Of a DNA stretch of 64,000 nucleotides, positions 4,751 through 52,123 are shown piece by piece. The notes beneath the pieces were generated by a model. That model was not told where the DNA came from, did no database searches, and was given only the letters and a program-made list of their open reading frames with translations. The stretch lies in NCBI GenBank assembly GCA_026393895.1, contig JAPKZG010000013.1, positions 14,556 through 78,555 of the forward strand, written 5' to 3'. The translations under genes and the position numbers were made by a program. The first letter of the stretch is position 1. Every line of letters begins with the position of its first letter. The stretch is from Candidatus Aminicenantes bacterium (GTDB taxonomy: Bacteria; Acidobacteriota; Aminicenantia; Aminicenantales; UBA4085).

Positions 4751-6520
4751 ATGCTTCGCTATTTCATCTACTGCCGAAAATCTACAGAAGCCGAAGACCG
4801 ACAGGTCCTTTCGCTTGAATCTCAAATAAACGAACTAAAACGACTCTCCGAGAGATTAAATCTCTCCGTTATTGACATCCTTATTGAATCTCGGTCAGCA
4901 AAGTCGCCAGGCCGACCGCATTTTAACGAAATGCTAAAACGAATTAGTCAGAAGAAGGCCGATGGGATTATCTGTTGGAAACTGGATCGCTTGGCAAGAA
5001 ATCCTATTGACGGAGGCCAGATCAGTTGGATGCTCCAAAAGGGGATTATTAAACATATCCAGACCTTCGATAGAGCCTACTTTCCTGAAGACAATGTCCT
5101 ATTGATGAATGTCGAGTTCGGAATGGCAAACCAATTTATCTTGGATTTGGGAAAGAACGTTAAAAGAGGGCTTAAAACGAAAGCTGAAAAGGGTTGGCTT
5201 CCAACGCTTGCGCCTCTTGGTTATTTAAATGAAAAAACAAGGGAAAAAGGAAAAAAAGAAATTCTTAAAGATCCCGAAAGATTTTCTCTAATAAAAAGGA
5301 TGTGGGACATGATGCTCACAGGAAATTACACCCCGCCAAAGATCGCTTATATAGCAAATAACGACTGGGGATACAAAACTCGGCAAGGAAAGCCATTGGT
5401 AAAAAGCACCATCTACCGGCTCTTTTCCAATCCTTTTTATTCGGGCTGGTTTGAATACCCGAAAGGAAGTGGCAACTGGTTAAAGGGAAGCCACGAACCG
5501 ATGATTACTCAAAAGGAATACGATAAAGTTCAAATACTTCTGGGTAAAAATGGCAAGCCTAGACTCAAAAAACACGAATTTGCGTTTACTGGTCTTATTC
5601 GATGCGGAGAGTGCGGAGCCACGGTCACGGCAGAAGAAAAAAACCAAATCATCTGCTCGAAGTGCAAATACAAATTCTCTTTAAATAACAGATACGAATG
5701 TCCAAAGTGTGCTACTCCTATTGAGATAATGAAGAAACCCACTATCCTCAATTATGTCTATTATCATTGCACAAAGAAAATAATGCCAGATTGCTCCCAG
5801 GGATATATAGAAGTAAATGAACTCGAAAAACAGATTGATTTTTATCTATCAAACATCCATATCTCGGAAGGATTTAAAAATTGGGCTATAAATAATCTAA
5901 AAGAAGAAAACGAGAAAGAAGCTTATTCAAGAGAATCAATCTTTGCTTCTCAAAGAAAAGCTTATGACAACTGCCTTAAGAAACTCGATAATCTTTTCCA
6001 ATTGAAAATCTCTCCTGCAAATACTGATGGGAGTCTTCTATCAGACGAAGAATACGGAAAACAAAAAATCGGATTTTTAAGAGAGAAAACCCGACTTGAA
6101 GAAATTATAAATGATAAAAGCGGCGGTATCGAGAAGTGGCTCCAAAAAGGAGAAAGAACTTTCAACTTCGCACTCAATGCTCGATATTGGTTTGAAAATG
6201 GGACACTCTTGGAGAAGTTTAAGATTTTAAAAGCTCTTGGCTCGAACCTGATTTTAAAAGACAAAAAACTTCATATTGATCTTAAAATACCTTTCACGGC
6301 TATAGGAACGGTCGTGAAGGAGGTTCCTACGGCCAGGTACGGGTTCGAACCTGAAAAATCAGACCAAAATGAAGCTAAACAAAACGATCTCTACTCCAAT
6401 ATTCCCATCGTGCTCCGCGCAATGAAGAAAGTTCGAACTTGGATCATCAGAAATGCTGATGCTTATGACGTTCCTGATTTGGAAAAGCCAACCGAGGATG
6501 CGCTTCCAATCCCCTTCTGA
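4751..6520 (+). CDS. large serine recombinase (resolvase/invertase catalytic domain + recombinase domain + zinc-ribbon)
   Basis: N-terminal 'YCRKSTEAEDRQVLSLESQ' (catalytic Ser region), 'DGIICWKLDRLARN'; Cys-rich zinc ribbon 'CGECGAT...CSKC...CPKC...YYHC'; 589 aa. Confidence 0.85.
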   Translation: MLRYFIYCRKSTEAEDRQVLSLESQINELKRLSERLNLSVIDILIESRSAKSPGRPHFNEMLKRISQKKADGIICWKLDRLARNPIDGGQISWMLQKGIIKHIQTFDRAYFPEDNVLLMNVEFGMANQFILDLGKNVKRGLKTKAEKGWLPTLAPLGYLNEKTREKGKKEILKDPERFSLIKRMWDMMLTGNYTPPKIAYIANNDWGYKTRQGKPLVKSTIYRLFSNPFYSGWFEYPKGSGNWLKGSHEPMITQKEYDKVQILLGKNGKPRLKKHEFAFTGLIRCGECGATVTAEEKNQIICSKCKYKFSLNNRYECPKCATPIEIMKKPTILNYVYYHCTKKIMPDCSQGYIEVNELEKQIDFYLSNIHISEGFKNWAINNLKEENEKEAYSRESIFASQRKAYDNCLKKLDNLFQLKISPANTDGSLLSDEEYGKQKIGFLREKTRLEEIINDKSGGIEKWLQKGERTFNFALNARYWFENGTLLEKFKILKALGSNLILKDKKLHIDLKIPFTAIGTVVKEVPTARYGFEPEKSDQNEAKQNDLYSNIPIVLRAMKKVRTWIIRNADAYDVPDLEKPTEDALPIPF

Positions 6521-12255: not shown

Positions 12256-13044
12256 CTAATTCCCTTTCCACGTTTTGCAGTTCTCTCGGTACTCACAGTC
12301 CTTACACATGAAACTGGTTCTCGGGAAAAAGACGCGCTGCTGGATTCCTTTGAGAATCTGTCCGGCCAGGAGGTAGAGCCGTTGGTAGTCGTCTTTGTCT
12401 CGCATTGTATCCATCGTGATCAGCTTAGGCTTCTTGGATTTGACGAAATTAACGATCTTTAAAGACTTAGCCGGCTTGTGGCTGATCCTTTCGAAAGCAT
12501 AGCTGTAGATTGTCAGTTGGAGATGGTTTTCGACTTCCTGAGGGTCCATGGTCTGGGCCGAGGTCTTGAATTCCGTGATCGAGTCATCCTCCTCGATTAG
12601 ATCAATCACCCCTTCCAGCTCGATGGCGGCGCTATGGCCGTTCTCGGAATTGAAGAGCGGGACAGAAAACGGAATTTCCGTACCCTTGACTTTCTTTTTC
12701 GGAAGCTCGAAATACTGAGCCAGCATCTCCTTTCCCAGGACGACAAGCTTCATCTCTTCTTCCCCGGCTTTGAAGCGAATCTCATTTTCCGTTTTCAGAC
12801 TGTACCAGTCCGCATCGAAAATCTTATGCAGGCGGTCGATCGTCACTCCGTTTCCGTTCATCATCTGCTTGTGATACCAGGAGAGAGCAGAATGGATCGC
12901 GCTGCCAAAAGCCAGTCCTGAAGATTTGAAGCGTTTCGGGATCTCATCAATGTACTGGAACTTGTACTTCAGACCGCAAAGCAGATAAAGATTGATTTGA
13001 GAGCTAGAAAGGTATGGCGTCATGGCTTTCGCCTTTGGCTTCAT
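12256..13044 (-). CDS. PD-(D/E)xK nuclease, Cas4/RecB-like with C-terminal Cys cluster
   Basis: 'IDLIEEDDSITEFKTSAQ' (D...ExK), N-terminal Cys and C-terminal 'CKDCEYRENC' (Cas4-like Fe-S ligands); 262 aa (start may be Met8 at ~13023). Confidence 0.6.
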   Translation of the reverse strand: MKPKAKAMTPYLSSSQINLYLLCGLKYKFQYIDEIPKRFKSSGLAFGSAIHSALSWYHKQMMNGNGVTIDRLHKIFDADWYSLKTENEIRFKAGEEEMKLVVLGKEMLAQYFELPKKKVKGTEIPFSVPLFNSENGHSAAIELEGVIDLIEEDDSITEFKTSAQTMDPQEVENHLQLTIYSYAFERISHKPAKSLKIVNFVKSKKPKLITMDTMRDKDDYQRLYLLAGQILKGIQQRVFFPRTSFMCKDCEYRENCKTWKGN

Positions 13045-13516: not shown

Positions 13517-14836
13517 ATGGAGAATTCTCAGAAAATTAATCGCATCACTCCGTTTGCCTTAACCGATTACCGCGACATCAGAAAGCTATTCGGCATTAAA
13601 CAAAAGAACCGGCGCGGCCATATGTACATCATCGGTAAGACCGGTACCGGAAAATCTACCTTAATCGAGAATATGGCGATCTCGGATATCAAGAACGGCT
13701 ATGGCGTTGCATTGATCGACCCTCACGGCGACATGGCCGAAGAAATTCTGGATTACATACCCAAGAAAAGAATCAAAGATATCATCTATTTCAATCCCGC
13801 AGATTTGGATAATCCCATAGCGTTCAACCCATTAGAAAAAGTACCAAGAGATTTTCATCATCTAATCGCTTCGGGAATTATCTCGACTTTCAAAAAGATT
13901 TGGTCAGAATCCTGGGGGCCGAGATTGGAGCATATTCTAAGTCACTCGCTTCTTTCGCTTCTCGAATATCCGAATAGCACACTTCTGGATTTGCCAAAAC
14001 TACTTACGAATAACGATTTCCGAAAGAACGTTCTAACTTACATCACTCATCCCCAGGTCAGGGAATTTTGGCTCTCGGAATTCGAGAAATATTCAGCTTG
14101 GCTCAAGTCAGAAGCGATTTCTCCGATTCTCAATAAGATCGGCCAATTCTTAATCAGTATTCCGCTAAGAAATATTGTCGGCCAGAAAGAAAATACTTTT
14201 AATGTTCGGCAGGCAATGGATGAAGGCAAGATCCTCATTGTTAACTTGGCTAAAGGAAAGATCGGAGAAGACAACTGCTCTCTGCTGGGCGCGTTGATTG
14301 TTACTAAGATTCAACTAGCCGCCCTGAGCCGTACGGATCAGCCTGAAGAGCAAAGAAAGCCGTTCTATTTCTATGTGGATGAAATTCACAACTTCATCAC
14401 CTTATCCTTCGCTGACATCTTGTCCGAATCTCGCAAGTACGGATTAAACCTTATTCTCGCCCATCAATATATCGAACAATTGGATGAAAGAATCCGGGCC
14501 GCAATTTTCGGGAATGTCGGGACAATCATTTCCTTCAGGATCGGCGCTGAAGACGCGAAGTATTTAGCCCAGGAATTTTCGCCGGTATTCAATGAAGAAG
14601 ATTTAATCAAGCTCCCGAATTTCCATATCTACCTCAAACTCATGATCGACGGAGTCACCTCGCAGCCTTTCAGCGCAATCACACTTAAACTAAGGGAAAT
14701 GAACACATCGCACAAAAAAGAAATTATCGAGTTTTCAAGGAAGCAATATACAAGGCCGAAAAGTGTTGTAGAACAACAAATGCTTTCTCAGCCATATCAT
14801 CTTCATAATTCAAATGGTCAACAATTATCTTTCTAA
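13517..14836 (+). CDS. VirD4/TraG/TraD-like P-loop NTPase (type IV secretion coupling-protein family)
   Basis: Walker A 'GKTGTGKS', Walker B 'FYVDEIHNF', 'AHQYIEQLD'; paralog of 1..2148 product; 439 aa. Confidence 0.7.
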   Translation: MENSQKINRITPFALTDYRDIRKLFGIKQKNRRGHMYIIGKTGTGKSTLIENMAISDIKNGYGVALIDPHGDMAEEILDYIPKKRIKDIIYFNPADLDNPIAFNPLEKVPRDFHHLIASGIISTFKKIWSESWGPRLEHILSHSLLSLLEYPNSTLLDLPKLLTNNDFRKNVLTYITHPQVREFWLSEFEKYSAWLKSEAISPILNKIGQFLISIPLRNIVGQKENTFNVRQAMDEGKILIVNLAKGKIGEDNCSLLGALIVTKIQLAALSRTDQPEEQRKPFYFYVDEIHNFITLSFADILSESRKYGLNLILAHQYIEQLDERIRAAIFGNVGTIISFRIGAEDAKYLAQEFSPVFNEEDLIKLPNFHIYLKLMIDGVTSQPFSAITLKLREMNTSHKKEIIEFSRKQYTRPKSVVEQQMLSQPYHLHNSNGQQLSF

Positions 14837-16500: not shown

Positions 16501-19311
16501 TTATATTTTTGTTAAGTTGTATTTATTTCTCCGATGTTCAAAAGCTACTTCACCACCATCTAATATGTCGCAAGCATGTTCACGAATGCCTTGCGCTTTC
16601 AACGTGTCTTCACATTTTTCGTCTCTTTCTTTTGTATTTTCGATGCTGCCAGTTAAATAATTAAATTGTTTGCCATCGGTGTTTTTTCTATCGCTACCAT
16701 ATCTATTAGCTACAATAATTTGCTCAGAATCGGCTTCTATAACAAGATTCGCATTATGGCTAACCATAATGAGCTGGCGTTCCCTTTTCTTCTTTTTTAA
16801 AAACGGCACTATCTCCTTAGTAATAGACCTACTATCTAAATTATCTTCCGGTTGATCAATAAAGATTGGCCAAGTATCTTCCGATTCAGCCAAAATGAGT
16901 TTTAAAAGGAATAGCGCGCGTCGTCCGGGTGTCATAGTCGTTTCCGAAAATCCTCCTATTCGATCTCCTTCCATTTCAGCATTAAATAGGATATTTTCCG
17001 TTAGCATTAATATTTCCTTTACAACTTCGTTTTTTTCATTACCAATATTTATTTTCTGTTTCCCATAATAAATTGCTTGTATAAATTTTGCTGGTTGATT
17101 TCTAGTTAATTCAATATTTAGTTCGTTCTTTTCAACAAAATCTGTTTTATCTCTCAAATTCACTTTCTTCGCAACTTTTTCTATATCATTTAGATTTAAT
17201 CCATATTCAATACCGAATCTAATATCTTTAATTATGCTTTGATTCGTAGTTTCTAAGAATTCTTTTAGCTTAATTAGAGTAGATTGCTTCTCTTTTATTT
17301 CTGCTTTGATGGACTTTTCATACTCTTCCATTTTCTTTTGATTTTTTATCTTTTTCTTTTCAGTATCATCTATATATTTTATAGTCTCTTTGTATTCAAT
17401 AAGCTTCTTTATAAGCCCTTCCAGTTCAACATTTTTTTGATATCTTTCTAATAGGTCTTTATGGTCTTCTTTATTCTTTGATATTTTTTCCTCAATATCC
17501 TTTTTCTCTTTTTCAGCAGATTTTTTGTATTCAATAACTTGTTGGTTAGCTTTTTCTATGAGCTTATCTCTAATTTCTATTAATTCTTTTTTGATCGCCT
17601 CATGTAATTTATCAGGCAAATTTTCTAGATCGGGAGTAAATTTCCAGTTTAATCCGCTAAAGTAATGAATTTCTTCTGATACGTGCGCAAGTTGAGAAAT
17701 ATCTTTTTTAATTTGTTTAATTTCTATTTCATACTCAGATATTTCAGCGCTAATATCCTGATACTGTTTTACGTCATCTCCGCTTAGCTGATATTTTCTT
17801 TTGAGGGTCTCTATCTTTGATTCGATCTCTTGTTTTTCTTTCTTAATAATTTCCTTATTCCCAATATTTCTTAAATCTTCTTCAATTGATACGATTGAAT
17901 CAGATGATCTGAGCCAGTTTTCAACTTTCTCTAAAATATGTTCATTACAATTATCTAACTGGCTTTTTGCTTGCTTGTATCTTATTTCAAATTCAGGAAA
18001 ACGTTTAAACAATACTGGCTCAATTTTCTTTTTTATTTCTTCGGAATCTTTACTTTTATTAAATAGATAATTTTGAGGTATATAAACAATCTTTCCAAGA
18101 CTTTCGTCATTAGATAAGCCATTACCCCATTCAATTGTATGATCTATCTTTATTTTGTCCCAATGATATTCTTCGCCTTCTCCTGGGCCGTCAATTAATT
18201 TTTCGACTAATTCTTTATCAATAGCGTGTGCTATATAAGCAAGTAAAGCAGACTTACCGGCTGACCTGCTTCCTATAATTGAACAAAGGTTTTTATTGAA
18301 TACAATCTCATCCGGAAAATCTTTACTATTATTAAATTTTATTTTCTTTATAACCTGGTATTCGTTCTTTTTATCAGGTTCAATAGGACCAATCCAAACA
18401 CGTTCCCCGGGTTCCGGTTCATAAATTATTTGTTTTAAACCTTCAAAAGTGGGATCTGCTTTTATCCAAGTTACATCTTTAATAATTATTTCCTTGCCAT
18501 TTTTGTCTTTTCTTAAAGCTCTTTTGCCCAAATATTTATCTAGATCATCAAAAGAATGTATATCGCTACCTGCAATGACTGGCTTTTTACCAATTGTCAA
18601 CTCGTTATCCTCAAGTCTTTTAGTATTTAGAAAGTATTCCTGGTTTTGGGTGCCTCCGAAGAATCCATCGCTGAATTTGTCAATCTCGTCACTGATACTT
18701 TCCTTTCTTTTTACACCTCGCTCCGGTCGAATACCATCAGAATTAGCAGCTGTAAAAATAAGGAAGTGATTGCGTTGTATAGCTTTTTTACCAAAAGTTT
18801 CTTCAAAAGCACTTTTGATAGCTTGCCTCGTAACTGTCGCTGATTCATAATCAAGTTGGTTTTTTAATTCCGAACATTTTATTGGCCTTTCATCCTTTCC
18901 TGTTTTGATAACTTTTAATTCGCTCAAATATTTATCTACTTTATCCAGAGTTGATGGATTAAATATTAAATGGACATTAACTTCTTCTGGTATTTTATTT
19001 ACCGATTCATTAAGTTTTAATTCGATATTTAAAAAAAATTTCTTTTTCGATTCGGGATATTTACTTTGATATTTCTCGATAAAAGTCTTATAACAGTCCG
19101 CAGAGAAATAATCAGTTATACCAAAAACCTCGACATCGGATTGTTCTATCTTATCGCAGAATACATCACAGGCGTCTTTATTATCACTAAATTTATATCC
19201 ATCATTAAGTTTTGTTCCTGGTATATGAATATGCAAATCCCACTTTCTCCATTCAGATCCTCTCGGCCAAGGAGTTATTTGCTTAAGGATATCGCTATTG
19301 TTTGTTCCCAT
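16501..19311 (-). CDS. PHP-domain phosphoesterase fused to Rad50/SbcC/RecF-like coiled-coil ABC ATPase (TrlF-like; candidate defence ATPase)
   Basis: N-term 'WDLHIHIPGT...FGITDY' PHP His motifs; Walker A 'GSRSAGKSALL'; Lys/Glu-rich coiled coil; C-term Walker B/D-loop 'IFIDQPEDNLD' and H-loop 'LIMVSHNANL'; 936 aa. Confidence 0.7.
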   Translation of the reverse strand: MGTNNSDILKQITPWPRGSEWRKWDLHIHIPGTKLNDGYKFSDNKDACDVFCDKIEQSDVEVFGITDYFSADCYKTFIEKYQSKYPESKKKFFLNIELKLNESVNKIPEEVNVHLIFNPSTLDKVDKYLSELKVIKTGKDERPIKCSELKNQLDYESATVTRQAIKSAFEETFGKKAIQRNHFLIFTAANSDGIRPERGVKRKESISDEIDKFSDGFFGGTQNQEYFLNTKRLEDNELTIGKKPVIAGSDIHSFDDLDKYLGKRALRKDKNGKEIIIKDVTWIKADPTFEGLKQIIYEPEPGERVWIGPIEPDKKNEYQVIKKIKFNNSKDFPDEIVFNKNLCSIIGSRSAGKSALLAYIAHAIDKELVEKLIDGPGEGEEYHWDKIKIDHTIEWGNGLSNDESLGKIVYIPQNYLFNKSKDSEEIKKKIEPVLFKRFPEFEIRYKQAKSQLDNCNEHILEKVENWLRSSDSIVSIEEDLRNIGNKEIIKKEKQEIESKIETLKRKYQLSGDDVKQYQDISAEISEYEIEIKQIKKDISQLAHVSEEIHYFSGLNWKFTPDLENLPDKLHEAIKKELIEIRDKLIEKANQQVIEYKKSAEKEKKDIEEKISKNKEDHKDLLERYQKNVELEGLIKKLIEYKETIKYIDDTEKKKIKNQKKMEEYEKSIKAEIKEKQSTLIKLKEFLETTNQSIIKDIRFGIEYGLNLNDIEKVAKKVNLRDKTDFVEKNELNIELTRNQPAKFIQAIYYGKQKINIGNEKNEVVKEILMLTENILFNAEMEGDRIGGFSETTMTPGRRALFLLKLILAESEDTWPIFIDQPEDNLDSRSITKEIVPFLKKKKRERQLIMVSHNANLVIEADSEQIIVANRYGSDRKNTDGKQFNYLTGSIENTKERDEKCEDTLKAQGIREHACDILDGGEVAFEHRRNKYNLTKI

Positions 19312-19521
19312 GTTTTAATATTATCCCCCTTTTATTAATTTTTCAATTTAATCCAATTAAATGAGAATATATGGAATCCCCTTACGTCTATAATAATGAG
19401 GCGCAACATTCCGCTGTCATGCGGCCACTGTCTCAGCCGGAAGGCCGAAAACAACCGGCCTCCGGCCGCCTCAATTTATAAGTCTTTCTATTTTTCTTAT
19501 TTCGTTTCTATTCTTCTATAT

Positions 19522-20376
19522 CTATCTACCAACGAATTCTATTATGCATTCTTTTGTTTTTGGCGATACCATGAAGCATGTGTACCAGACAGAAATGTCA
19601 TTGTAAAAACGGTGCTTAAACATGATATTCATCCCATTCCATTCTTCAGGATAATCAAAAAAGCACAATTCAAAAGCATAAATATCCTTTGGATATTCCC
19701 TCGGTTTTGCAGTCCATCCGAGATGCCAGTTAAGAACATTCAGTTTTGATTCGATATTTTTGTTTTGAATAAATCTTTGTGTTGCTTCTTCTCTTGTAAG
19801 TGGACCAGAAGTTGAAACATACCCTGGACTCCATACCCATGTTTTATCCCAATTAAAATATGAATCATGCTTTCCGATTATGCTCCAAATCATGGCCGCA
19901 GTTAGTTGGCGTAACCAAGCATGGATTTTCGTTTGGGGCTTAATATAGGGAAGATTAAAGTCTTTAGTTGGAGGTGGATCGACTAAAAGTTTTTGAAGTT
20001 GCACCTCATTCATAGCTTGAGAAAAATGCGGTTCAACTGCTTTAATCGCTCGTAAAACATTATCGGTAATCCTCGTGCTTTGGGGGTAATTAATTAAAAC
20101 TTGGCGTGCACCCATAATCATTGCTGTCACAATAGCTCGATCGCCTATATTCTTCTTCGTATTATGATCTTCACATGCCGGAACGGTAATGCTATTGCAT
20201 TCAAAGCATTCAAACATCATTTTTGGCGGCGCGTGCTCTCTGCTGTGACGCATTTTGTCTTGAGTAGGTCTGCCGCAATAATAACAGGGCTTTTTCCCAG
20301 AGTACTGATATAGCCTATTTTTCTGAGCCTTGTGTTTTTGTGAGTATCTTAAAACCATTTTTTTAATAAACCCCAC
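19522..20376 (-). CDS. HNH endonuclease
   Basis: 'CYYCGRP...HSREHAPPKMMFE..CFECNS...CEDHN' HNH/Zn-finger motif; 284 aa. Confidence 0.75.
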   Translation of the reverse strand: MGFIKKMVLRYSQKHKAQKNRLYQYSGKKPCYYCGRPTQDKMRHSREHAPPKMMFECFECNSITVPACEDHNTKKNIGDRAIVTAMIMGARQVLINYPQSTRITDNVLRAIKAVEPHFSQAMNEVQLQKLLVDPPPTKDFNLPYIKPQTKIHAWLRQLTAAMIWSIIGKHDSYFNWDKTWVWSPGYVSTSGPLTREEATQRFIQNKNIESKLNVLNWHLGWTAKPREYPKDIYAFELCFFDYPEEWNGMNIMFKHRFYNDISVWYTCFMVSPKTKECIIEFVGR

Positions 20377-20384
20377 CTAAATAT

Positions 20385-20418
20385 TAGAACAACTATTAGA
20401 ACAAATCAATATGTTCTT
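20385..20418. promoter_or_regulatory. LexA-box-like operator: TAGAACA direct copy plus AGAACA-N8-TGTTCT palindrome
   Basis: tatTAGAACAactatTAGAACAaatcaataTGTTCTtgaca read in sequence; GAAC-N..-GTTC is the Gram-positive-type LexA box core. Confidence 0.55.
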
Positions 20419-20444
20419 GACACAACAATTATATATGTTAAAAT
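20417..20444 (+). promoter_or_regulatory. sigma70-like promoter of LexA-like repressor operon (-35 TTGACA, 16-bp spacer, -10 TAAAAT)
   Basis: Hexamers read directly; -35 overlaps the palindrome; ATG at 20463. Confidence 0.55.
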
Positions 20445-20462
20445 ATATACAGAGTCAATTTT

Positions 20463-21071
20463 ATGTATAAAGAACTCCATCCGATTCAAAAGAAGCTGTT
20501 AGATATTTTGAAAAACAATATCGAAGATCCCCTGACGATCCGAGAGATACAGGGCATGCTGGACGCTTCATCTACGAGCGTAGTTGCTTATCATATCGCT
20601 CAACTGGAAAAAAGAGGATTCTTGAAAAAGAATCCGCTGAATCCAAAGGATTATCACATATTGAAGGATGGGCCGGAAAAGCAAATCGTCTATCTAAACC
20701 TATACGGCCTGGCTCACTGCGGAGCTAGAGGATCGATTTTAGAGGGCGACCCTATTGACAGGATTCCTCTATCGGCCAGGCTGATTTCCTTTCCAGCAAG
20801 CGAAGCATTCATGGTGAAGGCTAAAGGCGATTCCATGGAGCCTCTAATCCATGAAGGAGATTTGATCATAGCCAGAAAATGCAATTCGGCTGAAAACGGT
20901 AGAATCGTTGTCTGCATTAACAACGGAGAGGCGCTGATAAAGAAAATTAAAAGAGAAAGCAAAAATACGATCCTCATTTCAGAAAACTCCAAACATCCTC
21001 CCTTTCTGGCCTCCAAAAAGTTCAGGATTGAAGGCGAAGTCAGAGGCATTATAACCAGCAGAGTCGTCTAA
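20463..21071 (+). CDS. LexA/CI-like repressor (winged HTH + S24 peptidase domain)
   Basis: C-terminal 'AKGDSMEP' (Ser nucleophile) and 'LIKKIKRE' (Lys) S24 motifs; 202 aa; stop overlaps vsr start (TAATG). Confidence 0.8.
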   Translation: MYKELHPIQKKLLDILKNNIEDPLTIREIQGMLDASSTSVVAYHIAQLEKRGFLKKNPLNPKDYHILKDGPEKQIVYLNLYGLAHCGARGSILEGDPIDRIPLSARLISFPASEAFMVKAKGDSMEPLIHEGDLIIARKCNSAENGRIVVCINNGEALIKKIKRESKNTILISENSKHPPFLASKKFRIEGEVRGIITSRVV

Positions 21072-21472
21072 TGGATAATCTGACAAAAGAACAGCGAACA
21101 CTTTGCATGTCTCGAATAAGAAGCAAGAACACAAAGCCTGAGCTGGTCGTCCGCAAGGTGCTTTCAAAAATAGGGATTCGATACCGCCTCCATAATTCGA
21201 AACTGCCTGGAAGGCCCGATATAACGATTTCTAAAGCCAAAACGATTATTTTCATCAACGGCTGCTTCTGGCATCAGCATAAGAACTGCAAAAAGCAAGC
21301 TTTGCCCGCGTCCAACAAAGATTACTGGGAGAAGAAACTGAAAAGAAATATTAAAAAACAGAAACAGGATGTTCGGGCTCTAAGAAAGCTCGGCTGGAAA
21401 GTCCATAAGATATGGGAATGCCAGACGGCAGACGAAACAAAATTAACTAAAAGAGTTATGCAAATACTATGA
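21071..21472 (+). CDS. vsr: very-short-patch repair endonuclease
   Basis: 'TKPELVVRKVL...GIRYRLH...LPGRPDI....IFINGCFWHQH' canonical Vsr motifs; 133 aa. Confidence 0.85.
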   Translation: MDNLTKEQRTLCMSRIRSKNTKPELVVRKVLSKIGIRYRLHNSKLPGRPDITISKAKTIIFINGCFWHQHKNCKKQALPASNKDYWEKKLKRNIKKQKQDVRALRKLGWKVHKIWECQTADETKLTKRVMQIL

Positions 21473-22593
21473 AACAGGAAATAATATTCAAATTGGCTGA
21501 GTTATTCTGCGGACCGGGCGGCCTGTCTTTTGGGGCGATGTCCGCTTTTGTCACCGATTCAAAGGGCAAAACATATAAAGTCAAGCCCGTCTGGGCAAAT
21601 GATATTGACCCTGACGCCTGCAAAACCTTTGCCCGCAATATCCACGGCGGGAATGCCAAAAGGGTTATCTGCGCTCCAATCGAATCCGTTGATTTTGATG
21701 ATATCCCTGCTTTTGACGCCTTGGCGTTTGGCTTTCCCTGCAACGATTTCAGCGTTGTCGGAGAGCAAAAAGGTTTTCACGGTAAATACGGGCCTTTGTA
21801 TACTTATGGCGCAAAAGCAATAGACCTTTGCAATCCAAAATGGTTTATTGCTGAAAACGTTGGCGGGCTGCAGAGCGCCAACAACGGATCTGCATTTTCA
21901 AAAATTCTCCATGATCTCGAACACGCGGGCAAAGGGTATCGCCTGATTGCGCATTTATACAAATTTGAGGAATACGGCGTTCCTCAAACGCGGCACAGGA
22001 TCGTGATAATTGGAATTCGGAAAGATTTAAATCTGGAATTCAAAGTCCCCGCTCCGACTACGGTCAATAAATACGTTTCCGCTAGATCGGCCATTGAAAA
22101 CCCTCCCATTCCAGCTTTTACGCCGAACCAGGAGATGACTGCTCAATCCAATCGTGTCGTTGAAAGACTTAAGCATATACCTCCGGGCGAGAATGCCTGG
22201 TTCAGTGGCCTGCCCGAGCATTTGCAGTTGAATGTGAAACAAGCTAGATTAAGCCAGATATACAAAAGGCTAGACCCAGACAAGCCGTCCTATACCATTA
22301 CAGGCAGCGGAGGGGGCGGAACTCATGGATATCATTGGAGTGAAAACAGGGCTCTTACCAATCGAGAACGGGCCAGAATTCAGACCTTTCCCGATGATTT
22401 TGTATTTGAAGGCTCCAAAGAATCCGTCAGGAAGCAAATCGGAATGGCCGTCCCGCCGCAGGGTGCAAGGGTGATCGTTGAAGCGGTTCTGAAAACGTTT
22501 GCCCGCATTCCCTACAAATGGGTTTCACCCAAGCTAATCAACAGTGATTCGGCTAACAGCGGCCAGAAGTTACTTTTTGATGCGCGGGCTTAG
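21469..22593 (+). CDS. dcm: DNA (cytosine-5)-methyltransferase
   Basis: Motif I 'FCGPGGLSFG', motif IV 'GFPCNDFS', motif VI 'ENVGGL'; 374 aa; ATGA overlap with vsr. Confidence 0.85.
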   Translation: MKQEIIFKLAELFCGPGGLSFGAMSAFVTDSKGKTYKVKPVWANDIDPDACKTFARNIHGGNAKRVICAPIESVDFDDIPAFDALAFGFPCNDFSVVGEQKGFHGKYGPLYTYGAKAIDLCNPKWFIAENVGGLQSANNGSAFSKILHDLEHAGKGYRLIAHLYKFEEYGVPQTRHRIVIIGIRKDLNLEFKVPAPTTVNKYVSARSAIENPPIPAFTPNQEMTAQSNRVVERLKHIPPGENAWFSGLPEHLQLNVKQARLSQIYKRLDPDKPSYTITGSGGGGTHGYHWSENRALTNRERARIQTFPDDFVFEGSKESVRKQIGMAVPPQGARVIVEAVLKTFARIPYKWVSPKLINSDSANSGQKLLFDARA

Positions 22594-23429
22594 AGCAGTC
22601 CTAAAAGCTCCTGCCAGCTTTCCTTGTTTTTATGCAATTGTCCTGATTTCTTAACGAAGCGCACCCCGTCAAATTCCTGGCCTGGAATGCTGTTCACTTT
22701 CTCCAATTCATTGATACGGCACCAGCCCGCGATTTCGCAGAACATATTGGAGAAATCAGGCATTTTATCCTTGTAGCTTGGAAAGTGCTGTTCGCCTTTG
22801 ATGACTTGTATTACACGATCTTTTGTCAACCTCAGCAAATGATCGTCGGGGATGTCAGGGCGGCAAAAGATATAAAACTCAGACCTTCGCTCTTTTATAT
22901 TTATTTCGTTCTCTCCCAAAACAAGATACGCGCTCTTCGGCTTTGATGATTTAATCCCTATTCCTATCTTCGGATCGCGCTTTTCTCCTTTTTCAATGAC
23001 ACCGATAATATCTTGAGGAACGATATTATCATGGATTCCAAAATCCAATTCGACGCTGACATCAAATTCTTTTTCGAAGAATTTTTTAACTGCGACTTCC
23101 GCCAGCTGGCCTTTCACCCAGTTCGTTATTTTTTGTCCGAATTCTCTCTGCCTTGCCGTCCCCCAATCAGATAAGACGTACCCTCTGAAATGCTGAGCCA
23201 GGGCGAAATCCAAACAAAGGGAGTAATCCTCGAACGTCAGCTCTACAGTCCTCCACTTAAAAGCTACGGCCCATTCTGCTAGCTCGTCCTTAATGAAATA
23301 ATACCGGCCCCGGCCGCTTTTCCTATCCATGCACTTGAATTCATCTGCATTTTGAAAATAGTTGGCGAAAGTCTTCTCGTCCAATGACAAATATTCGGCA
23401 GCTTCTTTTTTGGACAAGGGTTTGTTCAT
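22590..23429 (-). CDS. putative type II restriction endonuclease (cognate of adjacent m5C MTase)
   Basis: Convergent with MTase, immediately downstream of C-protein gene; possible PD-(D/E)xK 'VELDFGIHD...IGIGIKSSK'; assignment by context. Confidence 0.4.
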   Translation of the reverse strand: MNKPLSKKEAAEYLSLDEKTFANYFQNADEFKCMDRKSGRGRYYFIKDELAEWAVAFKWRTVELTFEDYSLCLDFALAQHFRGYVLSDWGTARQREFGQKITNWVKGQLAEVAVKKFFEKEFDVSVELDFGIHDNIVPQDIIGVIEKGEKRDPKIGIGIKSSKPKSAYLVLGENEINIKERRSEFYIFCRPDIPDDHLLRLTKDRVIQVIKGEQHFPSYKDKMPDFSNMFCEIAGWCRINELEKVNSIPGQEFDGVRFVKKSGQLHKNKESWQELLGLL

Positions 23430-23433
23430 ATAA

Positions 23434-23658
23434 TTACTTGTTCAGAAAATAATTAAGATTTCTTTTATAAATATCCGCAAATTTCTTCAGTTGAATTACA
23501 TCTACCCGTCTTTGTCCAGATTCGATTTTTGAGATGTATGACTGCGATTTTTTCAACAGCTTAGCTACGGCCGCTTGATCAAGGCCAGCCTCAAGCCGAG
23601 CCTTCTTCAGCCTGTCCACCAAGGAGCTGTGTTCTTTTGAATAAATGGTATTTGCCAT
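23434..23658 (-). CDS. controller (C) protein-like XRE HTH regulator of R-M system
   Basis: 74 aa, 'LKKARLEAGLDQAAVAKLLKKSQSYISKIESGQR' XRE HTH; directly upstream of putative REase on same strand. Confidence 0.65.
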   Translation of the reverse strand: MANTIYSKEHSSLVDRLKKARLEAGLDQAAVAKLLKKSQSYISKIESGQRRVDVIQLKKFADIYKRNLNYFLNK

Positions 23659-23753
23659 AAATTATAGCTTATGTTATAAGTATATATTCCATTATGTAAT
23701 ATGCCAAATTGGAATACGAACTTTCTTCATTTCCGCTTGGCGGATTTTTATAA

Positions 23754-24653
23754 TTAGTCGCCAAGCCAGTTCTGCCGCCTTAGCATCTTTTCAAACTTCA
23801 ATCCCCACCATTTATATTTGCCCCAAGGCCTATAATGCCTATGGACAAAGCTCGTAACGTTTCGGCACCTAAAATTTTTCTTTATATAGGAGTTGACCTC
23901 AGAATCCACTGGAATCCGATCATAATATCCGGCAAGGATTAATAGATGGGCAGCGGCATATGGCCCGAAGCCTCGTAATCGAACTGCCATTTCGTAGGCG
24001 ACATCATAGGGCAGCGTGGCGTTTTCCAAGCTGGCTGGACCGGAATCGTTAGAAAATGACCGGGCTAGCTGTTTTAACGCTACCGCTCGATAACCTATTG
24101 GAATTCTGCGGCGCAGATCGTCAAGACGCTCATCAGCCAGCGCAGAAGCCAAAGGAAAAGGAAATCTTCCGCTGGGAGCAGGAGCAGAATAGTCAGCAGA
24201 ACAAATCTTCTCGCACATCTTTTGCGTTAGCGCCCAGGAGCAGTTTGTCGTAAATAAAGTTTTTGCGGCATCCTCCCATAGTGTTACGCCGCGCAGAAGA
24301 CGGCCTGCCCCCTTTCGTACCAGTCCTGGATATGGATCACCTATTTTTAAGGCGATCTTGAAAAGCCCTGTTGTTTCCTCTTTCAAACCGAGAATCCGAG
24401 CCAGCACAGCATCAATTCGTTTTAAAGAATTTGATTCGATCTTCTTTTTAGAGCAGATAACTCCTGAGATAGAGCGCTCGTCCTGCTGAATCGAAACATC
24501 GACGGCTTGGCTGTCAATAAGAAGAGCAAATTCCAAGCGGCTGTGCTTTTTATCCCAGGAGAACGGAGCAAGATTAACCCAGCCGTGCGTATGACAGGTT
24601 ACAAAAAGATCGTACCATTTGGGGCAGGGATATTTTCTATATGCTTTAAACAC
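23754..24653 (-). CDS. HhH-GPD superfamily DNA glycosylase (AlkA/Ogg-like)
   Basis: 'LRGFGPYAAAHLLILAGYYDRIPVDSEV' helix-hairpin-helix + Pro/Asp catalytic motif; 299 aa. Confidence 0.5.
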   Translation of the reverse strand: MFKAYRKYPCPKWYDLFVTCHTHGWVNLAPFSWDKKHSRLEFALLIDSQAVDVSIQQDERSISGVICSKKKIESNSLKRIDAVLARILGLKEETTGLFKIALKIGDPYPGLVRKGAGRLLRGVTLWEDAAKTLFTTNCSWALTQKMCEKICSADYSAPAPSGRFPFPLASALADERLDDLRRRIPIGYRAVALKQLARSFSNDSGPASLENATLPYDVAYEMAVRLRGFGPYAAAHLLILAGYYDRIPVDSEVNSYIKKNFRCRNVTSFVHRHYRPWGKYKWWGLKFEKMLRRQNWLGD

Positions 24654-24784: not shown

Positions 24785-26287
24785 ATGGAAAAGAATAAGC
24801 CCGTCGGCATTTGGATTCGGGTCTCGACCGAAGACCAAGCCAAAGGCGAAAGCCCGGAACATCACGAGAAGCGCGCCCGATACTATGCCGAATCCAAGGG
24901 CTGGCAAATAAAAGAGATATATCACTTAGAGGCGGTCAGCGGGAAGTCGGTCATGGGTCACCCGGAGACCCAGAAAATGCTCGATCATATCAAGTCCGGC
25001 CATATCACCGGACTCATTTTTTCCAAACTGGCCCGACTCGCCCGAAATACCAGAGAATTGCTGGAATTTGCAGACATTTTCAGAAAATATAACGCCGACC
25101 TGATCTCTCTCCAAGAAGCTATCGATACCTCTTCCCCGGCTGGACGGCTTTTCTATACCATGATTGCAGCCATGGCCCAATGGGAGCGGGAAGAAATATC
25201 CGATCGGGTCGCGGCCTCCGTCCCTATTCGGGCAAAACTCGGAAAACCGACAGGCGGACAAGCGGCTTATGGCTACCAATGGGTAAACAAACAGCTTGTG
25301 CCTGACCCTAAAGAAGCGCCGATACGGAAACTGATCTATGAGATGTTTCTTGAACACCAGAGGAAAAAAACCATAGCACGGCTCCTGAACGAGGCCGGAT
25401 ACCGAACCAGAAACGGCTCGAAATTCACGGATACGACCGTAGGAAGACTTTTAAGAGATACCACGGCCAAAGGGTTTCGCCGGGCGAATTGGACCAAAGG
25501 ACCGCCCGATAAAGGCCAAAAAAGGATAATCAAAGCCCAATCCGAATGGATAAATGTTCCGGTCGAGCCCATAATCTCTGAAGAACTCTGGAATCGGTGC
25601 AACGCGATCCTCGACGACCAGGAGAAAAGAGGCAAGAGACCAACTCGGAAAACCGTTCAGCTGTTTGCCGGATACACCTTCTGCGAGTGCGGAGACAAGA
25701 TGTACGTTCCCTCGAACTCTCCAAAATACGTCTGTTACAAATGCCGGAATAAAATCGGAACAACTGATTTAGAAGAAATCTTCCACCAACAGCTTAAAAC
25801 GTTTTTTTTCTCTTCGGGTGAGATCACTAAATATCTCAGCCAGGCTGACCAAGTGATAAAAGAAAAAGAGAACCTACTAAAGACAAATGGAGAAGAAAAG
25901 CGGAAAACGGAACAGGATATGGATAAAATATATCGGGCTTATACCAATGATGAGATCTCTATGGACAGCTTTGGAAAGCATTACCGGCCACTCGAAGAAA
26001 GGCTTAAACAGATAGACAATCAGCTTCCCGAGATTCAGGGAGAAATCGACTTCCTTAAAATCCAGTATTTATCCTCTGATCAGATATTCAATGAAGCCAA
26101 AGACCTTTATTCCCGCTGGCCTCAGCTTACTTCTGAAGAAAAAAGAAAAATCATTGAAAACATTACAGAAAATATAAAGATCGGAAAAGAAGACGTTACG
26201 ATCAACCTCACTTATCTTCCCTCTTCTTTCGAATTGATGGCAACTGAGCAACGCAATCACAGGGATTCATCGCCGCAACGAACATGA
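24785..26287 (+). CDS. large serine recombinase / integrase of the island
   Basis: '[21 protein letters not shown]' catalytic Ser region, '[13 protein letters not shown]', recombinase domain, zinc ribbon 'CECGDKMY...CYKC'; last ~8 codons and stop lie in GC-rich host sequence. Confidence 0.85.
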
Positions 26288-27308
26288 ACGCGGCCGGAAA
26301 TGTGGCGCTGTGGGCTGACCGGACCACCGTCACGGTCCCGTCCTCCAACGGTTGACGCAGATCCTCTAAAACCTTGCGTCGGAATTCGGGTAATTCGTCG
26401 AGAAACAAAACCCCAAGATGGGCCAAACTGACCTCGCCGGGTCGGGGCACCGCGCCCCCGCCGATCAATCCGGCATCGGTGACCGTATGATGCGGCGCGC
26501 GAAACGGCCGGCGGCCGACCGCTCCCTTCCCTTTCAAATACCCGGCTGCGCTGTAAACCTGGGTCACCTGGATGATTTCCTCGAACGTCATGTCGGGAAG
26601 GATCGAGGGCAGGCGCCGGGCGATCATGGTTTTGCCCGAACCCGGTGGGCCGATAAGGAGAACGTTGTGACCGCCGGCCGCGGCTACTTCCAGGGCCCGT
26701 TTGACGTGATGCTGGCCCTTGACTTCGCGGAAATCCGGCCCCGGAGGCGGTTCCTCGACCAACTCGGAAAGCGCGTACCGACTCGGTGGAAGCCGGCCCG
26801 GGTCGTGGAGGAAGGAGACGACCTGGGGCAGGTCGGACACCCCGAACACGTCGAGGCCGTCGAGCAAAGCCGCCTCTTTTTCATTGTCCTTGGGGACGAC
26901 GATGCCCTTGAATTTCCGGGTCCTGGCCAGGATGGCCGCCGAAAGGACGCCCTTGACCGGTTTGATCCTTCCGTCCAGGGCCAACTCTCCTAAAAAACAA
27001 TAATCCTGGAGCGGCGGAACCGGGACGATGTTCAGGAAGGCGAGATGCCCGAGGGCGATAGCCAGGTCGAACGACGGACCTTCCTTCCGGCGGTCGGCCG
27101 GGGCGAGGTTGATCGTAACCTTGCGGGGCTGAAAATCATAGCCGCAATTCTTGAGCGCCCCCTTGACCCGCTCCTTGCTTTCCCGGACCGAGGCGTCGGG
27201 AAGCCCGACGATGATGAAATCGGGCAGGCCGTTGCCGATGTCGACTTCGACCTCGACGATGTAGGCCTCGATGCCCTGGAGGGCGGAACTGGACGTTTTT
27301 ATGAGCAT
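26208..27308 (-). pseudogene. comM: comM/yifB Mg-chelatase-like AAA+ ATPase, 3'-truncated by island insertion (frame reads into island after 'AAMNPCDC')
   Basis: '[13 protein letters not shown]' Walker A, '[10 protein letters not shown]' Walker B, 'AAMNPC' sensor region then divergence; C-terminal ~140 aa missing. Confidence 0.8.
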
Positions 27309-51060: not shown

Positions 51061-52123
51061 TCAAAATCCGGTTGATCCGGCAGACGGCAACCGGGATCAT
51101 CCCGATTTTCCCGCTCTTCAAAGAGGCGGCGGGGGGACAGAACGCGCAGCGGTCGAGATACGGACAATTCCCGCAGGCCCGTTCGGACGTCTCGGCCCAA
51201 TCCATCCGTCCGCGGGCGTATTGGACGAGGACGTTCTTGTCGAGGTCCCCGGCGGATCGGAGAAAATCTCCGACCGTCCCGAAACAAAAACGGCGGGCCA
51301 CGTCCGCGGTCGGATGGACCCTGAAAAAATCCGCATAAAAATAACAGCCCCACAACCGCCCGTCGGGCGCCAGGGCGAGGCGGTCCCGCCCCGCCGAGCA
51401 ACCGAAAACACCGGAAGCGGCCGGGTGCCGGAAATTGATGAGCGGCATAGTCCGGCGGGCCCGCGGAAGGCGAAGAAAATATTTCCGGACCGACCGAAGC
51501 TCATGGGACAGCCGGTCCAGGGATCTTTTCCGCCACTCGACCTGATAATCAAACGACAGGAGCATGTTCGGGATTTTCCGTTCGGCGATATAGGCGATCG
51601 ATTTCGAAAGCAACCCTACGGTCCGGGGGCCGAAGACACTGTTCGTGGCCGGTTTGATACCCGGGTAACGGGGAAGGTCGTCAAGCAGCGATGACAATAT
51701 CCGGAAGCTTCCTTTCTGTCTTTCTTTTTCCTGGGCCAATCCGTCAAAGCTCAACATCAACTCGAAGCGGCGCTCGTTTAAAAAAGACAGAATCTCCGGG
51801 CTGAGAAGGGCGCCGTTGGTGGTCAGAACGTAGCGCAAGCGTTTCCGGGAACTTCGGTTCTCTTTCTCCAGACGCAGAACCGCCCGGCGGACCAGATCGA
51901 AAGCAAGGAGCGGTTCTCCGCCGTAAAACTGGATCACGGAGGAAGCGGACAAGAAGGGAAAAACCGCGGCACAGGCTTTGTCCAGGATTTTCCCCTCAAG
52001 AACCCTTGTGCCCCGGCGTTGATAACAATAACCGCAATGCCAAGGGCATCGCTCAGTCAGAATCAGCGAAAATGCGGAAAACTTCCCCTTGCCGGGAGGT
52101 TCCTTCAACGGCGGCCGGCTCAC
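51011..52123 (-). CDS. radical SAM / SPASM-domain enzyme (anSME-like peptide-modifying maturase)
   Basis: 'CPWHCGYC' CxxxCxxC; C-terminal Cys clusters 'CGNCPYLDRCAFCPP'; 370 aa. Confidence 0.75.
   Translation of the reverse strand: MSRPPLKEPPGKGKFSAFSLILTERCPWHCGYCYQRRGTRVLEGKILDKACAAVFPFLSASSVIQFYGGEPLLAFDLVRRAVLRLEKENRSSRKRLRYVLTTNGALLSPEILSFLNERRFELMLSFDGLAQEKERQKGSFRILSSLLDDLPRYPGIKPATNSVFGPRTVGLLSKSIAYIAERKIPNMLLSFDYQVEWRKRSLDRLSHELRSVRKYFLRLPRARRTMPLINFRHPAASGVFGCSAGRDRLALAPDGRLWGCYFYADFFRVHPTADVARRFCFGTVGDFLRSAGDLDKNVLVQYARGRMDWAETSERACGNCPYLDRCAFCPPAASLKSGKIGMIPVAVCRINRILIKQRELFWAQAAERGT

Follow-up and report, generated by a model that had tools for sequence, protein, structure and literature searches.

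Within a 64,000-nucleotide stretch of a Candidatus Aminicenantes genome (contig JAPKZG010000013.1; the whole stretch is referred to as the window), positions 20385-20444 probably form the core of a two-way promoter-operator that belongs to a horizontally mobile repressor of the LexA family. This repressor, Rep, heads the methylase operons of restriction-modification (R-M) systems. The segment lies in a 104-bp bidirectional control region (20359-20462), between a gene for a 278-amino-acid protein that is read leftward and rep, which is read rightward; we aligned this region to the control regions of rep homologues. Read directly, positions 20382-20444 are tatTAGAACAactatTAGAACAaatcaataTGTTCTTGACAcaacaattatatatgtTAAAAT.

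Three 7-bp elements make up the candidate operator. Half-site 1 (TAGAACA, 20385-20391, plus strand) is the distal copy of a direct repeat, and half-site 2 (TAGAACA, 20397-20403, plus strand) is common to the direct repeat and to an inverted one; the pair starting at 20385 and 20397 is part of a 12-nt direct repeat with a period of 12 bp. Half-site 3 (20412-20418, minus strand) reads TGTTCTT on the top strand, which is AAGAACA inverted. The inverted copy TGTTCT (20412-20417) lies 8 bp from the second TAGAACA, giving a perfect inverted repeat, AGAACA-N8-TGTTCT, at 20398-20417. The spacing of the core is thus GAAC-N10-GTTC, plus a GAAC-N8-GAAC direct repeat. An earlier note on this DNA had described two TAGAACA copies, the inverted repeat and an overlapping TTGACA-16-TAAAAT promoter, with an S24-peptidase repressor encoded immediately downstream, and all of these are indeed present. 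It had also proposed a search for further copies of the palindrome; AGAACA-N8-TGTTCT occurs exactly once in the 64-kb window. TAGAACA alone occurs six times there, against 3.2 expected, and a weight matrix of the direct repeat finds a single match of at least 10 bits, at 20384-20405, which scores 24.5 bits. A second palindrome, AACA-N8-TGTT (AACAATTATATATGTT, 20424-20439), lies 24 bp from the first, in the spacer of the rightward promoter; it is conserved in no homologue and is therefore probably an AT-rich coincidence.

The strongest evidence that these repeats matter comes from comparison. Rep has 761 homologues at E ≤1e-5, and a scan of one genome per species yielded 80 loci encoding proteins 54-72% identical to it; most of the comparisons below use 77 homologues. 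The loci come from Elusimicrobia, several Patescibacteria lineages, Saccharibacteria, Rickettsiales and other Alphaproteobacteria, Chlamydiae, Bacteroidetes, Acidobacteriota, Planctomycetes, Margulisbacteria and others. Metagenome bins may be mislabeled, but megabase contigs hold some of the loci, a complete genome holds one, and another is from a cultured Maribacter; the long contigs lead us to regard the breadth of phyla as real. The 140 nt upstream of the homologues are otherwise unalignable, yet the architecture seen in the window recurs. The pattern GAAC-N8-GAAC-N8..13-[GT]TTC is found upstream of 27 of the 77 homologues, against 0.006 expected and in none of 2,000 shuffles; in a further ten loci only the 12-bp-period direct repeat is present, the inverted pair is seen in ten, and 17, mostly of a Rickettsiales type, have the opposite palindrome, TGTTCTA-N5-TAGAACA. 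A gap-free consensus from 20 aligned loci, ncAgtaTAGAACAAAaanTAGAACAAgtCAAnatGTTCTTGacttn / TAGAACAAAaanTAGAACAAgtCAAnatGTTCTTGac, agrees with the window at every high-information column, and TGTTCTTG at half-site 3 is nearly invariant among those 20. Over 37 homologous sites, the half-sites carry about 1.7 bits per position. Half-sites 2 and 3 are separated by N10 in 21 of 28 loci (the window included), by N11 in four, by N12 in one and by N9 in two. All 38 loci carrying the direct repeat have it at N8, the spacing by which they were selected.

Weight-matrix matches are also concentrated upstream of rep. With three exceptions, one at -590 and two weak ones within or beyond the operon, those of at least 14 bits in some 540 kb of homologous sequence fall 20-165 nt upstream of rep. 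A metagenome-wide scan for TAGAACA-N5-TAGAACA returned at least 120 stretches; among the matches listed, none lies beside a rep homologue, and most are coding tandem repeats or chance occurrences.

The repeats are interlocked with two promoters facing away from each other. The rightward promoter, P_R, has a -35 element TTGACA at 20417-20422 (plus strand), of which 20417-20418 overlap half-site 3, and after a 16-bp spacer an extended -10 element, TGtTAAAAT, at 20436-20444 (hexamer TAAAAT at 20439-20444). It matches the consensus at 11 of 12 positions plus the TG, and is the best of 12 promoter-like sites between 19300 and 23600. Its hexamers are conserved: a -35 element matching at four or more of six positions directly follows TGTTC in 22 of 28 homologues, and a -10 element with A at position 2 and T at position 6 stands 16-18 bp away in 24 of 28. 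The promoter that the earlier note had placed at the right arm of the palindrome thus looks genuine. Several homologues appear to be leaderless.

The leftward promoter, P_L, was recognized through its homologues. In the window its -35 element is TTGATT at 20404-20409 (minus strand; AATCAA on the top strand, AGTCAA in homologues, which corresponds to TTGACT), its -10 element is TAATAT at 20381-20386 (minus strand), and the 17-bp spacer between them (20387-20403) is made of half-sites 1 and 2. Among homologues, TTG is kept in 33 of 40 loci and TAnnnT (typically TATACT) in 32 of 40; the spacer, 17-18 bp, again consists of two TGTTCTA repeats, and the -10 element overlaps the TA of the distal repeat. 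The homologues have a short leader downstream of P_L, followed by a small gene that is a different one at nearly every locus. The closest homologue, P0002, is 89% identical to Rep, and the closest with DNA compared (L203-205) is 85% identical. In the control region of the latter, the TAGAACA-TATATATA-TGTTCT palindrome is perfect and the distal repeat degenerate; both the AGTCAA of P_L and, for about 395 nt, any leftward gene are missing, which suggests that P_L is present with a cargo gene and absent where there is none. As half-sites 1 and 2 fill the P_L spacer and half-site 3 abuts the P_R -35 element, a protein bound to all three would block both promoters. Another P_L candidate (TTGACT at 20458-20453, a 17-bp spacer and TATATA at 20435-20430) was rejected, having no T at position 6 of the -10 element and no counterpart in homologues.

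Three features of the homologous control regions were recorded separately. Exact copies of a consensus DnaA box (TTATCCACA, either strand) stand in 9 of the 78 regions upstream of rep, where 0.08 would be expected; with up to one mismatch allowed, the count is 18 of 78 against 3.4. Loci with the box are L002-L004, L009, L010, L014, L020, L047 and L051; the window copy has no box. It lies at -11/-12, directly before the ATG, or within the P_R spacer, and may link the rep operon to replication status. In L004, L009, L010 and L015, a conserved hairpin, GTTATTG-(7-12 nt with TCGAC)-CAATAAC, separates P_L from the leftward cargo gene and might act as a terminator, as a recombination site or as a structure of the leader. 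Finally, the Rickettsiales-type loci, a subgroup mostly from Rickettsiales and Alphaproteobacteria bins (L027, L028, L035, L049, L053-L066 and L072-L074), have the single palindrome TGTTCTA-N5-TAGAACA as putative operator, placed like a roadblock about 15-35 nt past a TTGACT-type promoter. Among the 17 loci counted with this palindrome, only one open reading frame 3' of rep has so much as a methyltransferase-like motif (77 amino acids, L062). The subgroup may represent a chromosomal LexA lineage ancestral to the mobile form, or the reverse.

Rep itself (20463-21071, plus strand; 202 amino acids) combines a LexA-type winged helix with an S24 peptidase domain, and both score above the Pfam cut-offs (PF01726, 28.6 bits, cut-off 23.7; PF00717, 78.7 bits, cut-off 23.3). 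Its best solved relative is Thermotoga maritima LexA (3k2z), which aligns over the full length and places Cys86-Gly87 of Rep opposite its own Ala-Gly cleavage site. Cleavage at Cys-Gly is known from UmuD. Cys86 is conserved in 77 of 77 homologues, Gly87 in 74 of 77, and the putative catalytic residues Ser124 and Lys160 in 77 of 77 each. By its architecture and catalytic residues, and with an operator predicted at its own promoter, Rep belongs to the LexA family, and it is predicted to bind that operator. The putative recognition helix, SSTSVVAHH..QLEKKGYL, is almost invariant among homologues; in two Maribacter loci (L069 and L075) where the half-site varies to TAGAATA, the helix reads ASTSVVHHH, a covariation consistent with TAGAACA being the element that Rep reads. 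Canonical LexAs share 29-33% identity with Rep. Viral contigs in IMG/VR yielded no close relative, the one partial match being 28% identical, and the PLSDB plasmids and INPHARED phages held nothing more than 34% identical, their matches being canonical LexA or CI-like proteins. An identical repressor is named "peptidase S24 [Candidatus Aminicenantes bacterium]" at NCBI.

The genes that accompany rep place it in R-M systems. In the window, rep is followed by vsr, for a very-short-patch mismatch endonuclease (21071-21472, plus strand), and by a dcm-type C5 cytosine DNA methyltransferase gene (21469-22593, plus strand; PF00145, 243.7 bits). The start of vsr overlaps the rep stop by 1 nt and the start of dcm overlaps the vsr stop by 4 nt, so that the three genes appear to form a tight operon; vsr and then dcm follow rep in six further loci, and the co-transcription of the two proposed in the earlier note stands on both counts. 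Facing this operon is a type II restriction endonuclease gene, R (22590-23429, minus strand; PADLOC REase_II PDLC03411, E=4.7e-16), whose 3' end overlaps the convergent dcm by 4 nt. R is preceded by the gene for a controller (C) protein with an XRE-type helix-turn-helix (23434-23658, minus strand; PADLOC Control_protein models), the first gene of a C-R operon. The window therefore carries the genes of a putative type II R-M system together with that of a C protein.

Elsewhere the enzymes change while the arrangement persists. The 38 genes lying directly 3' of rep homologues include eight methyltransferases of the Eco57I/N6 type, six N6/N4, five C5 and two of the D12 class. At these methylase loci, the gene that follows nearly always faces the methylase gene, the 3' ends abutting, and encodes a type II restriction endonuclease of one of several unrelated families: BsuBI/PstI (four loci), BstXI, Alw26I, SwaI, BsobI, AccI, BglII, EcoRV, an HNH enzyme and the family of the window enzyme. 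Rep thus heads operons with methyltransferases of four classes, opposite convergent restriction enzymes of at least eight families. The full cassette, rep-vsr-dcm with R and C, is syntenic in L002-4, L010, L015 and L203, at 65-90% amino-acid identity; its copies are in Elusimicrobia, Parcubacteria, Patescibacteria and Caldisericaceae bins and in L203, each with a different leftward neighbor. Read from gene order and predicted domains, this is a general association of a mobile LexA-like repressor with type II methylase operons of many specificities.

Because rep stays with the motif while everything else around it changes, TAGAACA is best explained as the recognition element of Rep itself, and not as one tied to the methylase, the C protein or the cargo. 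Nor does TAGAACA look like a methylation target used for feedback, since the methylase class varies and TAGAACA does not. The autoregulation by the downstream repressor that the earlier note had proposed is borne out by this phylogenetic footprint, in which motif and gene co-occur across phyla in varying surroundings. We are confident that the predicted operator is that of Rep and that rep-vsr-dcm is under its own repressor's control; control of the 278-amino-acid gene through P_L is somewhat favored, and for induction by DNA damage through RecA, which we read from the conserved catalytic and cleavage residues alone, the chances appear even.

These elements suggest how the system might work. 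Rep would bind the three 7-bp TAGAACA elements and occlude both P_R, which serves rep-vsr-dcm, and P_L, which serves the cargo gene (here that of the 278-amino-acid protein). Such occlusion would amount to autoregulation, with the methylase and Vsr held at a maintenance level. In a naive cell without Rep, the strong P_R would at once produce a surge of methylase, with the endonuclease delayed by the C protein; the rising level of Rep would then throttle P_R, limiting the mutagenic C5 methylase and Vsr. Rep would be inactivated by self-cleavage at Cys86-Gly87 through its Ser124/Lys160 dyad. Filaments of RecA trigger self-cleavage of LexA, UmuD and CI. The residue conservation in the Rep family suggests that self-cleavage matters in it too, with RecA filaments formed after DNA breaks as the presumed trigger that would fire both promoters. 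The breaks could include cuts by the endonuclease of the cassette itself at times when methylation falls behind, and the methylase would then be re-induced. The dcm/R junction has no terminator, and the first terminator-like site on the plus strand lies inside R, at 23104-23123; the methylase transcript would therefore run into the convergent R gene, and induction may also depress R. A burst from P_R would then raise methylation and probably dampen restriction. Our tentative extension of this scheme is that Rep represents an undescribed class of horizontally mobile, self-cleaving R-M controllers of the LexA type, set ahead of type II methylases of many unrelated specificities, which bring about damage-triggered alleviation of restriction and whose three-half-site operator also drives a variable small cargo gene.

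Several observations weigh against this interpretation. The binding of Rep, repression, cleavage, the RecA trigger and convergent interference are all steps that we infer. Rep scores 91.7 bits against the LexA equivalog model TIGR00498, under its cut-off of 110.95. Among homologues the inverted repeat has spacings from N9 to N12, and three half-sites cannot be assigned to dimers in a simple way. The P_L of the window is weak, matching at 8 of 12 positions and falling under the scan threshold, and its predicted start lies inside the Shine-Dalgarno sequence of the 278-amino-acid gene. Rep may not respond to the RecA of a foreign host. No dispersed SOS regulon of Rep was seen, the survey covering the window, with its one site, and about 4 kb on either side of each of the 80 loci, a reach that leaves room for a wider one; SOS-type genes such as recA and translesion polymerases were not found beside rep in any of the 80. 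The local operator and the missing SOS neighbors would also suit a plain autorepressor, with the same repressor and operator responding to a signal other than DNA damage and timing the establishment of R-M, methylase first and then throttled, in the manner of a C protein or of the N-terminal helix-turn-helix of SsoII-type methylases. The S24 domain would then serve mainly for dimerization or basal turnover. The position of rep as first gene of the methylase operon, behind a strong promoter, fits such negative feedback, as do the score under the LexA equivalog cut-off and the many phyla of the hosts, whose RecA proteins differ. What this explanation leaves hard to understand is the retention of the serine and lysine in every one of the 77 homologues, and of the Cys-Gly pair in 77 and 74 of them, in proteins that are 54-72% identical to Rep, if cleavage is irrelevant; we regard it as unlikely, while taking it seriously.

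The remaining explanations concern the site itself. The earlier note had read it as a Gram-positive-type LexA box. It could be a canonical Gram-positive (Cheo) box, or else an SOS box for the LexA of the host chromosome, and the locus would then belong to the global SOS regulon of the host; in favor of this, the site has GAAC and GTTC cores in common with the GAAC-N4-GTTC of Firmicutes and Actinobacteria (PMC4951493). The spacing here is GAAC-N10-GTTC rather than N4, with the 12-bp-period direct repeat GAAC-N8-GAAC as part of the site, and so the site is not a Gram-positive Cheo box; GAAC-N4-GTTC is absent from the control region and has a single match in the window, at 51849. In addition, the motif follows rep through unrelated phyla, canonical LexAs are distant from Rep, and the host part of the window (about 60% GC, Aminicenantes) has no other copy, which makes either form of a host box very improbable. 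It is almost as improbable that some other protein (the C protein, the methylase or the leftward product) binds the repeats, or that they are only structural parts of the overlapping promoters and include no repressor site. The AGTCAA and TTGAC sequences between and after the half-sites are indeed best read as -35 boxes, and half-site 3 keeps a fixed position relative to one; even so, TAGAACA and rep are constant across differences in methylase class, restriction family, presence of a C protein and leftward cargo, and the needs of sigma-70 do not explain GAAC cores in a promoter spacer at the conservation given above. Chance repeats in an AT-rich intergenic spacer were considered as well. Among 5,000 shuffles of the 104-bp spacer, 57% contained a 6-bp inverted repeat, 24% a 7-bp direct repeat and 5.4% both repeats sharing a word, which leaves the window, taken by itself, marginally non-random and counts with the points listed above; the bare 14-base direct-repeat pattern is also common by chance in very large collections. 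The comparative data, with the motif upstream of 27 of 77 homologues and at a fixed position relative to two promoters, effectively refute chance.

The predicted operator corresponds to none of the four LexA motifs catalogued in PMC4951493: GAAC-N4-GTTC (Firmicutes/Actinobacteria), GTTC-N7-GTTC (Alphaproteobacteria/Acidobacteria), CTGT-N8-ACAG (E. coli) and TGTTC-N4-GAACA (Verrucomicrobia). Rep resembles canonical LexA in its winged helix and S24 domain, its Ser/Lys dyad, its scissile X-Gly bond and an operator overlapping its own promoter; the 6-N8-6 inverted repeat has the outer geometry of the E. coli box, and the GAAC core recalls the Gram-positive half-site. It differs in the GAAC-N10-GTTC spacing, the obligatory 12-bp-period direct repeat and the three half-sites, in a predicted cleavage site that is Cys-Gly, as in UmuD, rather than Ala-Gly, in an operator seen locally only, and in neighbors that are R-M genes rather than repair genes. 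From Verrucomicrobia LexA, with its tandem sites, it differs in spacing and orientation in the window and in protein lineage; the two are alike in the pentamer TGTTC/GAACA as monomer element and in having several half-sites in the promoter (PMC4951493), and the TGTTCTA-N5-TAGAACA of the Rickettsiales-type homologues has the same orientation as the Verrucomicrobia motif.

Many Rep homologues are proteins annotated "repressor LexA" in Patescibacteria genomes. Sanchez-Osuna and colleagues reportedly described in 2017 a Patescibacteria LexA that binds direct repeats, and the direct-repeat part of the Rep operator may coincide with that published motif, which we offer as a lead only. Direct-repeat-binding LexAs have been reported from Alphaproteobacteria, Acidobacteria, Balneolaeota and Patescibacteria (PMC7739468). 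They share with Rep the use of GTTC/GAAC-type half-sites as direct repeats. Unlike the GTTC-N7-GTTC boxes, the Rep repeat is GTTC-N8-GTTC, with a period of 12 rather than 11, and its site adds an inverted third copy and sits in back-to-back promoters, in an R-M operon on a mobile island.

Among R-M regulators, the C proteins, the AhdI-like two-loop systems, the SsoII-type methylases and RptR of type I systems offer the parallel of a small autoregulated repressor encoded by the first gene of an R-M unit (PMC2275141; PMC12255303), with repeats overlapping the promoter and convergent M and C-R units (PMC2275141). Rep differs in being an S24 protein of the LexA family, not an XRE-type helix-turn-helix protein or RptR, in its predicted control of the methylase side and in its conserved self-cleavage apparatus; the window has a classical C protein for the R gene as well. 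In the open-access literature we found no account of type II R-M systems under a LexA-type regulator, none of a link between DNA methylation and DNA damage via such a repressor, and nothing relevant in text pairing TAGAAC with LexA; a 2025 review of R-M biology and the RptR paper (PMC12255303) do not mention LexA or S24.

Self-cleaving S24 repressors of mobile elements are otherwise familiar: lambda CI and SetR of SXT respond to RecA and act on divergent promoters. Bacteroidetes reportedly have no LexA homologues, and their SOS response is said to depend on CI-like S24 repressors (PMC8565304). With these Rep would share a mobile-element-borne or -derived S24 repressor placed over divergent promoters; theirs have a CI-type helix-turn-helix and control lysogeny, transfer or SOS, whereas Rep has the LexA winged helix. 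Rep homologues are sporadic in Bacteroidetes genomes, as expected for an accessory transferred gene.

If this interpretation is true, Rep would be the first LexA-type (S24) controller of type II systems found in the open-access literature, in a field where regulators of R-M and defense systems are few and new ones, such as RptR, were still being described in 2025. It would link self-inflicted DNA breaks to methylase expression, and would let a mobile R-M cassette establish itself and be kept non-toxic across phyla without host regulators. The TAGAACA half-sites with their bidirectional promoter would form a portable repressor/operator pair, and their mixture of direct and inverted copies would bring a further LexA-binding architecture into the debate over the evolution of LexA specificity. 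In annotation, the label "repressor LexA" in genomes of the candidate phyla radiation or other uncultured lineages should not imply a chromosomal SOS regulon.

On the leftward side, the earlier note had assigned the operator a divergent operon of an HNH nuclease and an ATPase. The divergent gene (19522-20358, minus strand; 278 amino acids) occupies the variable cargo position and would be read by P_L. That the operator governs it is plausible, as the direct repeats are the spacer of a conserved P_L, with the weak P_L of the window as the reservation; that it encodes an HNH enzyme is not demonstrable, since it matches no family (Pfam HNH_5, E=0.09) and its confident structure model finds no fold match in the PDB. 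At the same position, homologous loci have GIY-YIG-like, HNH, staphylococcal-nuclease-like, metallo-beta-lactamase-fold, TIR, DUF3892 and membrane proteins. The ATPase is a TrlF-family, AAA-like protein of 936 amino acids (16501-19311, minus strand; NCBIfam NF045780, 484.8 bits, cut-off 350) with a PHP-like N-terminus (HxH) and a Ppl-like C-terminal region, and is probably a defense gene. A GC-rich hairpin without a T-run (19434-19473, minus strand; -28.9 kcal/mol, z = -4.8) stands just past the stop of the 278-amino-acid gene. The ATPase gene, 120 nt beyond the hairpin and 210 nt from the other gene, has its own AGGGGG ribosome-binding site and promoter-like hexamers, so that the two may be separate transcripts rather than one operon. 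Because each copy of the cassette has a different leftward neighbor, neither gene belongs to the conserved module. A similar PHP+AAA_21 protein is encoded at L203 (6191-7263, plus strand), on the other side of the same R-M cassette, which suggests that ATPase and cassette share a type of island without a fixed order.

The cassette lies in such an island. From position 1 to about 26.2 kb, the window has a low GC content (34-47%) within a genome of about 60%. At the right end, a large serine recombinase gene (24785-26287, plus strand) stands next to a truncated comM/Mg-chelatase-like gene (26208-27308), and because the island abuts this truncated gene it is probably an integrative mobilizable element inserted in comM. 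It also holds a second large serine recombinase (4751-6520, plus strand), a TrwB-like coupling protein (13517-14836), a Cas4-like PD-(D/E)XK nuclease (12256-13044), a DUF932 protein and a RuvC-like protein.

Two further observations concern the C side of the cassette. The region upstream of the C gene (23659-23740, minus strand) contains an inverted repeat, TATTCCA..(19 nt)..TGGAATA, which is a candidate C-box, and a TATAAT stands 2 nt before the ATG of that gene, which suggests that the C-R transcript is leaderless, as in several characterized C-protein systems. Adjoining the C gene, a gene at 23754-24653 (minus strand) encodes a 299-amino-acid protein that is a distant relative of 8-oxoguanine/HhH-GPD DNA glycosylases (TIGR00588, E=3.6e-11, far under the cut-off). 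It is kept beside the same cassette in L203/L204 (66% identity; L203 4945-5844) and may provide an accessory repair or base-excision function for the methylase/Vsr module.

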